Source of the DNA: Dictyostelium discoideum
Lineage: Eukaryota
Length of the DNA stretch: 64,000 bases
Assembly (NCBI GenBank): GCA_000004695.1
Contig: CM000154.2
Coordinates: 3,328,001 to 3,392,000 of the forward strand
Reading direction: 5' to 3'
In this document: positions 5,633-26,636 of the stretch, in pieces
Position numbering within the stretch: the first letter of the stretch is position 1
How the letters are laid out: every line of letters begins with the position of its first letter
Position numbers and translations under genes: made by a program
Notes under the pieces: model-generated
Told to the model about the DNA's origin: nothing
Databases searched by the model: none
The model's input: only the letters and a program-made list of their open reading frames with translations

Positions 5633-7669
5633 TATTATTATTTTAAAATAGTTGAATAGATCTTTATTAAATGTATCAAGTTGACATTTTCCAATTTCAA
5701 TATCATTTGGTAAATTTAAAACAATATAATTAAAAAATAAAACATTATTAAAACAATGATAATTTTTATTTTTTGGAGTACGTTGAATTAAATAAATGAA
5801 TTGATCAATTGATAAAGTTAAATTTGAAACACTCCAAACATTAATCATTGAATAATTTGAAATGAAATCATCTATATTATCATAAACGAATTTATAAACA
5901 TCAAAACTTACACCACCATTATTAACCAAATCCAATTGTTCAATTGATGAATAATATTCTAATGAATAGTTTTTTTTAAAATGTTCAAAAATTATTGATT
6001 TATTATTATTTATTAAAATTTTTAAAATTGAATTTGATAATTGTTGATTTAATTCTTGGTCATTTATTATTATCTCTTTATATAATAAATCAAACATTTC
6101 AATTGATTTCACCATTGATATGAATATCCTTTTTAAACGTAATCTAATGGTTTCCTTATCCATTAATGATACAACATTTAAATAATCATCATTATTTAAA
6201 AGTTGATTTATTATTAATCTTGAAAATTGTAAATTATTTTCATTTATAAAACTTGACATTAATTTCTCAATTATTAATATTGAATTTGGTTGATTTTGTG
6301 ATTTTAAATCTACCAAAACATTATTTATATAGTTTATTTTAACAATTTCATCATTTTTACAAAATTTAAATAAACTATCATCAGAGTGACCCATTTCTAA
6401 CAAATCATGAAATTGATATTGACCAAACATTTTTAAATTTATAGATTTTGTTTTTATTGTTGAATTTTCAATTAATAATAATAATGTTGAATAATATTGA
6501 TAATCATTTTTATATTTAATATTAATATAATTTAAATTCTCTAAATAACAATTAAAATGATTTGTAAATGGTAATAATAAATTATAAATTTTTAAAACAT
6601 TTTCGTTTTCATTTAAATTAATATCCATAATATTTTTTAATAAATCATTTTTTGAAAATTTCATATTTTCTATTTCATTTAATTCTAATAAATTAATTTC
6701 AAAATTATTTATTACTTTTTCAAATTCTTTTAAAAATGTTAAATTATTAATTGTTGTATTTTTTAATTTATAAGATTTATCATTTACCGATTTTATAAAT
6801 TTATTAAATAATGATTTAATTTTAATTATAATTTTAACAGATTCTAATACTGTTGATAATTTTGATTGATAAATTTTAATATTAAATATGTATGGTGTTG
6901 GTATTTGATTATTTGGTAATGGTAATTTTAATTTGTTTAATAAAAAATTAAATTTTTCATTTATTCTTAAATGTTCATTTTCACTATCTTGAATTGATAT
7001 TGATGTACTACTACTACTATTTAATTCTATTGAATTTTCAATATCTTGATATAATAAATTCCAAATTTTAATTATTAATGAATTTGATTTTATAATTTTT
7101 AATTGATTAAATAAATAAAATGCGCATTCATATGATCCAATTATAAATGACTTAAAGAATAATTCAATTTGTAATTTATGATTAAAGTTTTCATGTAGAA
7201 CTTTTAATGCTAACTCATTATCGTAATCAATTAAAAGATTTTCAGTTTCTTGAATATTTGATTTTAAATAATAACTTGAATAATTTTTAAATAAATCTAT
7301 ATAAAAATTTAAATCCCAATGAATTGCTGCTTTTTCTTTATTAAATATACAATTCTTATTTAATAATAAATTTTTTGAATAAATAGTAGTGTTATTACTA
7401 CTTTTACAATAAACACTATGTGGCCATTCATTTTTATCATTACCAATACCATTTAAAACTAAATATTCAGAATTTTTGATTTTATCCTTTAATTGTTGAA
7501 AATAACCATTTTCAATTAAAAACAATGCTGATATTACTTTTTCAAATTTAATAATACCAAATCTATTATTACCAATTGATATATATTTAATAATTTTATT
7601 TCTAATAACAATATTCTTCCATATTTTATTATAAAATAAATTATCATTATTAACAAGTGAGTTTTGCAT
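5090..7669 (-). CDS. Member 1 of an Asn-rich paralogous family of unknown function, 859 aa.
   Basis: Long intact ORF. N-terminus NLFYNKIWKNIVIRNKIIKYI matches the ILFWKVFKNVVIRNLIFKVM motif of ORFs 42229.. and 45542... Internal NELALK and LKDKIKNSEY motifs are shared with them. A poly-N tract is encoded by (AAT)n at 5555-5640. Confidence 0.8.
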
Positions 7670-10794: not shown

Positions 10795-12114
10795 ATGACA
10801 ATCACATTTGAAGTTTGTGATAATTTAGAATTAGAGGGAGTTGAAAATTTTTATTCATTTGATATTAAAATTTTTATAGAAGAACAAATTAATAAATCAA
10901 TTCCAAACACAACAGAAAGTTATGGTGAATTATTTAATCAATTTAAAGAGAAAGGAATAAAAGATTTAACAGAAATCCATAAATTAGTAAATGAAAAAAT
11001 AAAAGAAAATGATTTAAAAAGAAAATTAAAAATTGAAGAACTTTTTAAAAAAACAAATATTTTAAAATCAAGTTTAGATAATATAGGAGATAAAGAAAAA
11101 AAAGAAAATGAAGATTTAAAAATTATTGTTGGATATAATAGTTTTGTATACTCTGCGTGGGAAAGTTATAATAATCATAATCATTTAGTATTACGTCCTG
11201 ATAATATTTGGATGGCAATAGTTTCACAATTTTCATTTTATATAAATAAATATAATAAAGAATTACGTAATAAATTTGTAGATTTTCATGAAAAGAAAAT
11301 TTTACAAGTTTTTACAGATTATTCAATTTTAGATGGTAATGGTAATGGTAATGGTAGTGGTATCAGTGATGATATATCCTTTGAAAAATTAACAAATGAT
11401 ATGGTGGATGAAATTTGTAAAAATATTAAAGATCCATCAATTAGGGATTGGATAATACCATCATTTTCAACTACAACTTTATCAGATAAAATTATTTTCT
11501 CATCAGCATTAATGTCAACATTAAAAAAAGATTTCATTTATAGGTATGGTAGTAAATGTGGTTTACCAAAGGTTACATTACTTGGTACAGTTGATGATTG
11601 GATTCAATTAAAAGAAAGATCATTAAAATTAAAAGAATTCAATATTTTTGATAGTGATAGTAATAATAGTAGTGGTGACGGTGATGGCGATGAAAATTTA
11701 ATGAACAAATGGGTTGATAAATATTTATTAGAAATTTTAGATAATTTCATTGAATCATCAAATGGAAAACCAAATAAAACTTGGTGGAATCAAATCATTG
11801 ATTTTAGAGAACAATCTGGAAGTTCAGTTTTATCAGGTTGGTTATCAGCATTTTGTTTATTTAAGGATGATGGAAGTTTTGAAGATAATGCACATTTAGA
11901 TAGTCCTCAATTATATCCAGAAACTAAATGGCCAAAAGTTAATTGTATTTCAATTCCAAATGGTTTCATTTCAACTCCTATTCAATTAACTGATTCAAAT
12001 GGTAATATTTTTAATTCTCAATTATTTTCTGGTCATTTTGCTTCAAAAATAAAAAACAATAATACTTTAATACCATCATTAGATTGGTTTATTATTTCTA
12101 ATCTAGATATTTAA
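10795..12114 (+). CDS. Hypothetical protein, 439 aa, function unknown. It carries internal GNGNGNGSG and GDGDGD low-complexity tracts and a conserved C-terminal region with GKPNKTWWNQIIDFREQSGSSVLSGWLSAFC.
   Basis: Intact ORF with an AAAATG start. Its C-terminal ~130 aa are reproduced by a degenerate copy at 23960-24360. Confidence 0.75.
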   Translation: MTITFEVCDNLELEGVENFYSFDIKIFIEEQINKSIPNTTESYGELFNQFKEKGIKDLTEIHKLVNEKIKENDLKRKLKIEELFKKTNILKSSLDNIGDKEKKENEDLKIIVGYNSFVYSAWESYNNHNHLVLRPDNIWMAIVSQFSFYINKYNKELRNKFVDFHEKKILQVFTDYSILDGNGNGNGSGISDDISFEKLTNDMVDEICKNIKDPSIRDWIIPSFSTTTLSDKIIFSSALMSTLKKDFIYRYGSKCGLPKVTLLGTVDDWIQLKERSLKLKEFNIFDSDSNNSSGDGDGDENLMNKWVDKYLLEILDNFIESSNGKPNKTWWNQIIDFREQSGSSVLSGWLSAFCLFKDDGSFEDNAHLDSPQLYPETKWPKVNCISIPNGFISTPIQLTDSNGNIFNSQLFSGHFASKIKNNNTLIPSLDWFIISNLDI

Positions 12115-21144: not shown

Positions 21145-23713
<2,569 letters not shown>

Positions 23714-23959: not shown

Positions 23960-24360
23960 TTATAAACTTAAATCGGCAACAATAAGCCAATCGAATAAAG
24001 GTGATAATTTTGATCCTTCAATTTTTTGTGTGAGATGACCAAAATAAAGTGTACTATTATATTTAGTTCCATCGAAATCGGTTAATAGTATTGGTGTTGA
24101 TGTGTAACCATAGGGAATATCAGTTTCACAAATTTTTGGCCATATAGTTTCTGATGAGTCAAGACAAAGAGGTGGAAATTACCATCATTATCAAACACAC
24201 AAAAAACTGATAACCAACCAGTTAAAATACCACCACCTGATCTTGATCTATAATCTACAATTTTATTACACCATTCTTTATCTGGTTTACCTCTTGATGA
24301 TTGAATAAAGTTATCTAAAACTGGTAATAAATATCCAAGCCATTTATTCATATGATCTTC
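23960..24360 (-). pseudogene. Truncated, frameshifted copy of the 3' end of the gene at 10795-12114.
   Basis: The minus-strand translation MNKWLGYLLPVLDNFIQSSRGKPDKEWCNKIVDYRSRSGGGILTGWLSVFCVFDNDGNF aligns to NKWVDKYLLEILDNFIESSNGKPNKTWWNQIIDFREQSGSSVLSGWLSAFCLFKDDGSF of the parent. After a 1-nt frame change it continues SSETIWPK...TSTPILLTD...LFDWLIVADLS, aligning to PETKWPK...STPIQLTD...LDWFIISNLDI. There is no upstream homologous coding sequence; an AT-rich promoter-like stretch abuts it. Confidence 0.7.
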
Positions 24361-24482
24361 TTTATTTTATTTATATTTTCTATTTTTTTTTTTTATTTTT
24401 TATTTTTGTTTTTATTTTTTTTTTTTATTTTTATTTTTAATTCACACAAATAATTTTCATTTTTGACAAAGAGAAAAAAAAA

Positions 24483-24785
24483 ATGAACCGTAACCACCAC
24501 CACCCAGATTCTACTGAAAAGCTTTTACAATATGATAACTTATTGGAATTTGAATTTGGGAAAGATTGTACAGCAGAATGTATTAAGGAAGTAGTAGAAA
24601 GTCTTGAAATGTACAAAACTGCATCAATACTTTATCAATCACTCAAAGTTAACGAAGATGGTTCCTTACCTCTTTTTCAATTCAGAGATGTATTACACTA
24701 CCATAGTGAGGATTATTTAGTTGAAGACAAAAATATTCAAGATCTCTTTACAGTCAATATTTTGGATCTTAATTTTCCTGGTTAA
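24483..24785 (+). CDS. Small hypothetical protein of 100 aa, starting MNRNHHHPDSTEKLLQYD...
   Basis: ORF with an AAAATG start context and coding-like GC relative to its flanks. No recognisable domain. Further exons cannot be excluded. Confidence 0.4.
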   Translation: MNRNHHHPDSTEKLLQYDNLLEFEFGKDCTAECIKEVVESLEMYKTASILYQSLKVNEDGSLPLFQFRDVLHYHSEDYLVEDKNIQDLFTVNILDLNFPG

Positions 24786-24992
24786 CCAAAAAGAACAGAT
24801 ATCCCAACAAAAGAAGAAGAAAAATAATAATAAAAAATATATTTTTTAAAAGATTATTACATAAACAAAACCAATTTAGGTTTTATTTTTATTGTTATCA
24901 TTTTTTTTTTTTTTCCTTTTTTAATTTTTAAAAAATTAAAAATTATTATATTCTTCATCATATAACATCTCCTCATATTTTTTGAAAATTCT

Positions 24993-25038
<46 letters not shown>

Positions 25039-25050
25039 TAAGAAACTATT

Positions 25051-25105
25051 TTTATTCACTTTGATTTGATTTGATTGATTTGATTTGATTTGATTTGATT
25101 TGATT
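25051..25105. repeat. (GATTTG)n hexanucleotide repeat of about 8 units.
   Basis: Read directly from the sequence. Confidence 0.85.
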
Positions 25106-25421
25106 TTTTTTTTTTTTTTTTTCCATCCAGATATTTGACTCTATTTTAATTTATTAAAAGTCTCAAGAATTGCTCATTTGAGGTGTTGTGCAAAAAAAAG
25201 CCAAATATTGATGGTTAATTATTAAAAAAAAAATAATAATAAAACAACAATAATATATAATAATAAGTAACAATTAAATTTAAAAATTAAATAAAAATTA
25301 ATTTGCAATATCATTTATTTATTTAATTTTTTTTTTTTTTTCTATTTTTTTTTTATAATCTTTGGCCGAAGATTTTTTTATACACAAATATTTTATTTTT
25401 AAAAAAAAATTATTTTAATTA

Positions 25422-26601
25422 TTATTGATGGTGTAAATTTCCAGTGAAATCTTCAACATATTCTAAAAAAGAACTTTGTAAAATAAATAAATCCAAGTTG
25501 AGTGCTGGTGGAATGTTTGCAGGTGGATTAGGAACTCCATTAAAAATGATTGTACTTGGAATCTAAATAAATAAATTGAAATAGATTAAAAATGAAAACA
25601 AACAAATTAATTAGAAACCAGTAAATACATATTATATATAAATGAATTATATATTTTTACTTACACTAATTAAAAACATGGGAAGATTAGGTGCATTACA
25701 TTGAACTGGATTGGTTCTTTTATATCCGACTGCTGGAACACCAACTGTAATAGTTTGATATTGATTTTCATTTATTTGAGAAATTGGTTTGGTTCCAAAA
25801 GAAATTATAGAAACTGGATTTTCTCTGCTTATAACACCATTAAACACAAGTGCTGTGCATTTAAATGTATTATTATTATTTGGATCTCTTGGTCTGATAC
25901 AAATACATAATACATATTGAATACCTGAAATTCTAAATAAAATTCTTGCTCTTGCTACCGCATATGAAACACCTTTTGAGTAATACATCTCAAAAGCCAC
26001 TGTAGGGATATCTACATTAGGTTGTGCTCTTCCCTTTGGTAGTAAACATGAATCGGGTTGAACAAAACCATTGCCAGGTATAGCAATTGACAGTTCATTC
26101 AAACCCACAAGGCTATAATTACTAGTAAGGCTATATGCACCGACTTGTACAAGAAAATAAGATAAACCGAATGCATGAATCTTTGAAACGCTCAAATCAG
26201 TGATTATAACGAAACCATTAATAAGCATTACCTTTGGAATATCATCAAACATATTTCTTATATTATCAAATTTTTCAAGACTAATATTTTTTGCAACAAT
26301 AATACCATCAACATTTTTATTAAACAGTAACAAATCACCCAACTCCTATGTATTTTATAAACATTTAAAATAAAAAATATCAATATTTATCAATCTTCAT
26401 TAGTTTTAATTATTTAATATTTACTTTTTTACTGAATTTAATTCTCTCTTTGATTGAAATAAATTGATTTGATAAATCTACTAAACTGAAGCTATCAATA
26501 GATTTCAAATCAAAACTTTTATTATTTTCATTTGTTAATGTATTCATTACTGACTGTACATTGGTGGCTCTGCCAATTGATAAAAAAGAAAAAAATTTCA
26601 T
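25422..26601 (-). CDS. Three-exon gene encoding a hypothetical 332-aa protein with a hydrophobic N-terminus, as complement(join(25422..25562, 25665..26345, 26425..26601)).
   Basis: Exon A MKFFSFLSIG...KFSKK ends at a GTAAAT donor. Exon B (the track ORF 25647..26342 shows 'M' for a TTG, so it is not a real start) follows acceptor ..ACATAG and ends ..MFLIS before a GTAAGT donor. Exon C follows acceptor ..TTATTTAG and reads IPSTIIFNGVPNPP...GNLHHQ*. All junctions keep phase 0. Confidence 0.65.
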
Positions 26602-26636
26602 TTTTTTGGATTTTTTTTTCCCAAAAATGGTGGCCC

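Follow-up and report, generated by a model that had tools for sequence, protein, structure and literature searches.

The described systems closest to the locus treated here are three classes of pseudogene, namely unitary, duplicated (non-processed), and processed pseudogenes, and one product of automated annotation, the frameshift-bridging mini-intron. The locus is a segment of about 400 bp on the minus strand (24351 to 23960) of a 64,000-nucleotide stretch of the Dictyostelium discoideum AX4 genome (GenBank assembly GCA_000004695.1, contig CM000154.2, positions 3,328,001 to 3,392,000), which is designated the window in the following. The segment carries the gene model DDB_G0289841 and encodes the C-terminal part of a DUF4419 protein (PF14388 in Pfam), a family for which no function is known. 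It very probably represents what is left, in place, of a distinct and old DUF4419 paralog, which in the AX4 lineage became a truncated pseudogene.

As in a unitary pseudogene, an intact ortholog is found at the syntenic slot, the lesions are derived, and no intact copy of the lineage is present among the predicted proteins of AX4. The locus differs from this class in that other DUF4419 paralogs are intact and that the deletion apparently came with the templated insertion of a foreign gene copy; since the full-length gene at 10795-12114 of the window and the paralogs DDB_G0290805, DDB_G0290821, and DDB_G0290823 are intact, the function of the family is not lost. With duplicated pseudogenes it shares the chromosomal proximity of a family member to an intact paralog, which is 12 kb away, but here an ancient duplication gave two functional genes, one of which became a pseudogene much later and by an unrelated event. 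Like processed pseudogenes, the fragment is partial, biased to the 3' end, and trailed by A-rich sequence, whereas its A-rich flank is native and orthologous and the fragment lies at the ancestral locus of its own gene; it is also intronless, as are the intact orthologs of L002, L003, L004, and L008. From the mini-introns of automated annotation the locus does not differ at all and is a textbook example: the GT..AG pair nearest to the lesion restores the reading frame, and two pipelines picked different ones. A literature search retrieved no paper in which DDB_G0289841 is mentioned, found DUF4419 in two papers only in passing, and revealed no paper on the new Dictyostelium assemblies used below.

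The DUF4419 remnant

The window has a GC content of 22.7% and contains, among others, an actin gene and poly-asparagine tracts. Its full-length DUF4419 gene (10795-12114, plus strand; 10795 gene in the following) encodes a protein of 439 residues with a complete Pfam DUF4419 domain (E 2.5e-89). The first-pass annotation of the window, made from the sequence alone, had noted that a segment of about 400 bp matches the last ~130 codons of this gene, with one frame break and no homologous coding sequence upstream, and these observations proved correct, the segment lying on the minus strand. A tblastn search of the window with the 439-residue protein, as proposed there, yielded two high-scoring segment pairs on the minus strand, one at 24360-24172 (frame -2, 37 of 64 residues identical, 58%, query residues 300-363) and one at 24151-23963 (frame -1, 29 of 64 identical, 45%, query residues 376-439), with a joint E value of 2e-31; beyond these two, the window contained no match with E < 5. 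Both halves are recognized by the DUF4419 model, with 51.5 and 25.7 bits (E 1.3e-13 and 9.6e-06), each above the gathering cut-off of 25 bits. Instead of a complete domain in a single frame, the fragment covers positions 157-303 of the 303 model positions, split over two frames.

The homologous sequence extends on the minus strand from 24366 to 23960 and represents the C-terminal ~135 codons of a DUF4419 protein. The remnant itself, as defined by tblastn, Pfam, and a codon alignment, reaches from an ATG at 24351 to a TAA at 23962-23960 and corresponds to residues 270-404 of a 404-residue ortholog from another isolate (P0012, see below). The TAA aligns with the stop codon of the 10795 gene and the ATG with its internal Met303. 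Five more homologous codons (N-K-E-D-H, ortholog residues 265-269; 24352-24369, minus strand) precede the ATG and form the end of DUF4419 homology, and an in-frame TAA at 24369-24367 closes the frame. One extra base placed anywhere in 24150-24181 generates a frame of 130 codons with no other stops, in agreement with a single frame break. In the sequence as it stands, the unspliced open reading frame (ORF) 24351-24082 specifies 89 residues, comprising 59 native ones followed by an out-of-frame tail; ICETDIPYGYTSTPILLTDFDGTK is an example of a peptide unique to the remnant. N-terminal DUF4419 homology was not detected elsewhere in the window by tblastn with either the 10795 protein or the full-length ortholog P0012. 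A rescue by splicing to upstream exons was considered and rejected, as the frame is shut by the TAA at 24369-24367 and the sole minus-strand ORF upstream is antisense to the neighbouring gene DDB_G0289843 and without similarity to DUF4419.

Intact orthologs in the same slot

The 439-residue protein retrieved 84 members of the DUF4419 family, all of which were scored against the fragment. The closest is P0012 (ACTFIR_002228, D. discoideum, 404 residues), which is 90% identical overall and 95% and 93% identical in the two halves, these matching its residues 265-329 and 336-404. It is followed by P0010 of D. cf. discoideum (404 residues, 84%), P0011 of D. citrinum (399 residues, 82%), and P0009 of D. 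dimigraforme (431 residues, 68%). The 90% cluster of P0012 also includes ACTFIW_008315 (D. discoideum) and ACTFIY_001512 (D. cf. discoideum), both of 404 residues, and has no AX4 member. To the 10795 gene, the fragment is only 52.7% identical at the amino acid and 66.9% at the nucleotide level, and identity to the 10795 lineage as a whole is about 48-53% (amino acids). In a neighbour-joining tree confined to the alignment columns that the fragment covers, the fragment groups with the ACTFIR protein (ACTFIR_2228) with a bootstrap value of 98 and in a clade with the four syntenic orthologs with a value of 100. The 10795 clade is separate and has members of its own from D. dimigraforme, D. citrinum, and D. 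firmibasis, from which it follows that the duplication behind the two lineages predates these species. The 10795 gene is a member of the sister paralog lineage and not the parent of the fragment. Among the predicted proteomes, on which this comparison is based in place of a whole-genome tblastn, no intact copy of the fragment's lineage was found in AX4, the 10795 cluster, DDB_G0290805, DDB_G0290821, and DDB_G0290823 all being at most 51% identical to the fragment.

The position of these orthologs is the same as that of the fragment. In all five loci fetched for comparison (L002, the ACTFIR locus; L003, from D. cf. discoideum; L004; L005; and L008, from isolate ACTFIW), a DUF4419 gene of ~400 codons lies directly upstream of a class-3 lipase gene. 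Past the lipase gene follow a large minus-strand gene and then the gene for the PEX1-type AAA ATPase, an order that Pfam analysis of the neighbours shows to be the same in the window and in L001, the corresponding locus of the independent chromosome-level assembly GCA_054883475.1. An intact gene of 399-431 codons occupies the slot in two other D. discoideum isolates, two D. cf. discoideum assemblies, D. citrinum, and D. dimigraforme, the evidence being locus data for L002, L003, L004, L005, and L008 and a protein record only for ACTFIY_001512. The sequence on the 3' side of the fragment runs collinear with the corresponding flanks of L002 and L008, with which it has an A-rich run in common, and relative to these orthologous flanks no poly(A) tail has been added. 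In the lipase exon 21145-22464, ACTFIR (L002) and ACTFIW (L008) are 95.2% and 97.0% identical to AX4, and the 10795 proteins of AX4 and ACTFIR are 93% identical. Such divergence is high within one species, and the isolates labelled D. discoideum may be cryptic lineages.

Replacement of the 5' part

The rearrangement that removed the 5' part was mapped by local filtered blastn and by MAFFT. When the reverse strand of the window is aligned with L002, the flanks are 96-100% identical, while window ~24370-25410 and L002 9735-10790 are related only at the random level. In L002, the counterpart stretch comprises the promoter in the intergenic region together with codons 1 to ~264 of the DUF4419 gene. 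The AX4 lineage has lost ~1 kb (promoter and codons 1-264) and has gained ~0.96 kb of foreign DNA. The AX4 block 24360-25420 was matched in neither orientation by P0012 (tblastn) or by the DNA of L002-L005 and L008. An inversion of the missing 5' part was ruled out, the block being absent in both orientations from the relatives.

The foreign DNA has two parts. The first, 611 bp at 24364-24974 (plus strand), is a dispersed duplicate of a locus of the ORF100 family and contains a promoter, the gene, and the 3' end of the donor's neighbour gene. It is 91% identical to positions 5886-6503 of L006, a locus that lies on a different contig in the ACTFIR isolate and codes for a 115-residue protein (P0091). 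In addition, 260 bp of it (24504-24763) are 93.5% identical to L007, the ortholog of that locus, which is situated at another place on the same AX4-type chromosome. The second part is an AX4-specific, AT-rich filler of ~350 bp (24975-25325) for which a donor was sought without a match in any fetched locus; a run of ~38 T residues (T38) and a (TTTGA)n microsatellite lie inside it, at 24995-25037 and 25060-25105. The right junction, between remnant and donor copy (24364-24372), shows the A/T microhomology TTTATT. The left junction (25322-25340) falls in an A-rich tract that lies ~85 nt after the stop of the upstream 344-codon gene, beyond which homology to the intact alleles resumes; as L002 has a small deletion of its own there, the closer isolate L008 was used to refine the position. 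A 17-nt word, TTTTCTATTTTTTTTTT, occurs at 24376-24392 and at 25338-25354, near both junctions of the AX4-specific block. It is the only flanking direct word and brackets the foreign insert, not the fragment; it may be junction microhomology or a duplication-like footprint, or, being of low complexity, may be due to chance. A scan for bacterial-type promoters and terminators, whose models are not made for eukaryotes, gave no enrichment.

Lesions and substitution pattern

Besides the loss of its 5' part, the remnant carries a net deletion of 16 nt between 24173 and 24172 (minus strand; DNA alignment columns 299-314), which is specific to the AX4 lineage and causes the frameshift. It strips the codons QDKANT(S), present in all five intact orthologs of the codon alignment, and falls in non-repetitive coding sequence. 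In a four-way DNA alignment, moreover, the remnant has TGT (Cys) at 24268-24270 (minus strand) in place of the TGG (Trp) of every ortholog. This tryptophan, W297 of P0012 and W28 of the remnant, belongs to only 17 columns that are invariant in an alignment of 54 DUF4419 sequences. Three lesions (5' replacement, 16-nt deletion, W297C) occur only in the AX4-type sequence and are derived, the polarity being set by outgroups that possess the full gene and the 16 nt.

By parsimony, five nonsynonymous and two synonymous changes fall on the AX4 branch (omega about 0.7), and W28C, V79I, S109F, and I125F affect sites that are identical across all four orthologs used; pairwise omega among the intact orthologs is 0.19-0.40. 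The synonymous divergence (dS) of the remnant is 0.038 to the intact L002 allele and 0.76 to the 10795 gene. When neutral drift of the 10795 3' end to an amino acid identity of at most 52% was simulated, a mean of seven in-frame stops accumulated and only 0.15% of the runs had none, whereas the fragment has zero. Zero stops against a mean of seven implies that the divergence from the 10795 gene built up under selection in a functional gene and that disablement is recent. On these data, the duplication separating the two paralogs is ancient, with both copies functional, and the truncation recent.

Gene models and the case for a functional short gene

Two publicly available models of the locus were retrieved when proteins were searched with the frame-corrected translation, DDB_G0289841 of AX4 (119 residues, UniProt Q54GX2) and ACTFIT_001256 of GCA_054883475.1 (107 residues). 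Neither is a spliced model that joins the segment to a full-length paralog, the finding that would have spoken against the first-pass description. The AX4 model contains a GT..AG 'intron' of 32 nt (24151-24182, minus strand; 41% GC), and the other assembly one of 68 nt (24151-24218, minus strand; 35% GC). For comparison, the real intron of the adjoining lipase gene has a GC content of 11%, the intergenic DNA of this region has 8-12%, and D. discoideum introns have a median length of 104 bp and a mean of 133 bp (PMC4683709); an explicit minimum length for this species was not found in the literature, which gives just the median and the mean. Both 'introns' align to in-frame codons of the orthologs and resemble spliceosomal introns neither in length nor in composition nor in absence from the orthologous coding sequence. 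Since the sequence is in-frame coding DNA in orthologs that are single-exon genes (L002, L003, L004, and L008), the 'introns' are annotation workarounds for the frameshift, and since identical DNA in two assemblies was given different ones, they represent alternative workarounds of the software. The 119-residue model would owe its existence solely to a gene predictor that spanned the frameshift with a pseudo-intron of 32 nt.

These models bear on the explanation that the locus is a functional short gene, of 119 residues if spliced or 89 if unspliced, which is expressed from a bidirectional promoter brought by the ORF100 insert. It is annotated as protein-coding in two assemblies, has an ATG in frame and only one disabling lesion, and lies head-to-head with DDB_G0289843 across an AT-rich spacer of 131 bp. 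We nevertheless consider this explanation improbable, because the assemblies disagree on the intron (32 vs. 68 nt), which in either form has an exon-like GC content, is far shorter than the 104-bp median, and removes conserved coding sequence, and because family-invariant residues are mutated at an omega of about 0.7. The structure of the protein points in the same direction. In an AlphaFold model of the intact 404-residue ortholog P0012 (pLDDT 84, pTM 0.83), for which a comparison with solved structures gave no convincing relative, the part retained in AX4 consists of one helix and a C-terminal beta-hairpin sheet, and the protein forms one compact chain that has no confident domain boundary at residues 265-270; this point is suggestive only. 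A more far-reaching version, according to which the remnant was captured by the insert's bidirectional promoter and is now transcribed and translated as a new strain-specific protein of 89-119 residues at a locus that is a hotspot generating such novelties, would be a speculation with still a little less in its favour.

Proposed origin by copying of the 10795 gene

The first-pass annotation had taken the segment for a segmental or retroposed partial duplication of the 10795-12114 gene that was placed 12 kb away and decayed neutrally. The two share the Pfam family, and the restriction to the last ~135 codons, the single frame break, and the lack of upstream homology are what a partial copy would show. 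The relationships are different from those expected: the parent of a copy should be its closest relative, whereas the nearest relatives of the fragment form a different, syntenic, full-length clade (bootstrap 98-100), the amino acid identity to the 10795 gene is 52.7%, and dS is 0.76 to that gene but 0.038 to the intact ortholog. With regard to retroposition, the site is occupied by the full gene in relatives, the 3' flank is collinear and orthologous without a new poly(A) tail, and no target-site duplication surrounds the fragment; neutral decay predicts about seven stops where none is observed. The proposal is refuted by the intact ortholog that six related genomes have at this position, and we regard a copy of the 10795 gene as practically out of the question. 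Of the 'decayed partial pseudocopy', the partial, frame-broken DUF4419 relic stands, and the decay from a 10795 copy does not. The nucleotide comparison with the 10795 gene, which had been suggested for dating the duplication, gave 66.9% identity and a dS of 0.76; this divergence arose while both genes were functional.

That the gene is really intact and its lesions are sequencing or assembly errors is a similarly negligible prospect despite the long, error-prone homopolymers and microsatellites in the flanks, because the 16-nt deletion lies in non-repetitive coding DNA and GCA_054883475.1 (L001), which is 98.9% identical to the window over the inserted block, is identical over the whole remnant and both junctions, lesion included, so that the lesion is real.

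Proposed course of events

The in-place truncation of a separate paralog can be described as follows. The ancestor of D. discoideum and its sister species had two linked DUF4419 paralogs ~12 kb apart, one of the 10795 type and one a ~400-codon gene directly upstream of the lipase gene. The second paralog then lost its promoter and codons 1-264 in the AX4 lineage, with foreign DNA taking their place. This replacement may have been a single double-strand-break repair with templated insertion from an ORF100-family locus, joined via A/T microhomology. The 16-nt frameshifting deletion in the surviving 135 codons occurred simultaneously with the replacement or later, and the remnant shows relaxed evolution. 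The remnant would no longer yield a functional DUF4419 protein and would give at most the 89-residue product with its out-of-frame tail.

Several points weigh against this account. The loss of function is deduced solely from the nucleotide sequence, and transcription is plausible because an in-frame ATG lies 131 bp from a divergent gene. The 5:2 ratio of changes on the AX4 branch represents too few events for a significant test of relaxed selection. The replacement may have been one event or several, and the actual donor may be another locus, the two nearest sequences being just 91-93.5% identical to the insert. Finally, the intact and truncated alleles may be fixed between cryptic lineages and not constitute a polymorphism, because, in the lipase exon, the D. 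discoideum isolates that carry the intact allele differ from AX4 by 3-5%.

Neighbouring genes and further variation at the locus

The gene brought in by the inserted block, DDB_G0289843 (24483-24785, plus strand), is an ORF of 100 codons that is divergent from the remnant, the two ATGs being separated by 131 bp; this AT-rich spacer was copied from the gene's own upstream region. Compared with its relatives P0091-P0093 of 115-117 residues, it has a premature TAA at codon 101, and the AX4 frame past this stop, to 24830, still encodes PKRTDIPTKEEEK*. DDB_G0289843 may be a pseudogene as well, or else a gene that has been shortened slightly. The ORF100 family comprises eight clusters of 100-121 residues, in none of which a Pfam domain was found. 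L007, the counterpart of the donor-like L006, is located on the same chromosome at about 1.55 Mb (6001-6434, GCA_054883475.1). Of the ORF100-family gene only 263 bp are kept there, and this stretch is annotated as ACTFIT_000584, a spliced model of 121 residues with unrelated N- and C-termini. The 'original' copy at L007 looks more degraded than the inserted one.

Upstream of the remnant lies a gene for a protein of 326-345 residues (window 25410-26625, minus strand; L002 8557-9724; L008 1095-2313 and 2510-3713), which is present once in AX4 and ACTFIR and as a tandem duplicate in ACTFIW. By tblastn, it has no match in the loci of D. cf. discoideum, D. citrinum, and D. dimigraforme, and a 231-residue ORF of this gene gave no match in Pfam. 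In D. cf. discoideum (L003 8374-9598, GCA_054859235.1), a second copy of the DUF4419 paralog lies in tandem on the upstream side of the intact gene. Its alignment with P0012 runs through three different frames, implying two frameshifts, and it is annotated as two genes of 150 and 227 residues; here a pseudogene has arisen independently at the same site. The stretch of a few kilobases that precedes the lipase gene is a hotspot of structural variation. If the capture of the remnant by a foreign promoter were true, the two DUF4419 paralogs, the tandem pseudocopy of D. cf. discoideum, and the duplicated or absent neighbours would be parts of a novelty-generating hotspot among wild Dictyostelium lineages.

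Implications

As an ordinary truncated pseudogene, the remnant is of small biological significance. For annotation, DDB_G0289841 (Q54GX2) should carry a pseudogene or gene-fragment flag, its 32-nt intron being an artefact, and DDB_G0289843 should be read as a slightly truncated dispersed duplicate. The breakpoints record a ~1-kb deletion with, in all probability, templated insertion in Dictyostelium, and the region, which has undergone repeated structural change among close isolates, may serve as a strain marker. More generally, the parent of a 'partial copy near a paralog' is not assignable from one genome: the sister genomes reversed the inferred history of this DUF4419 locus, in that what had looked like a recent partial duplication is an ancient duplication with a truncation that came only recently.
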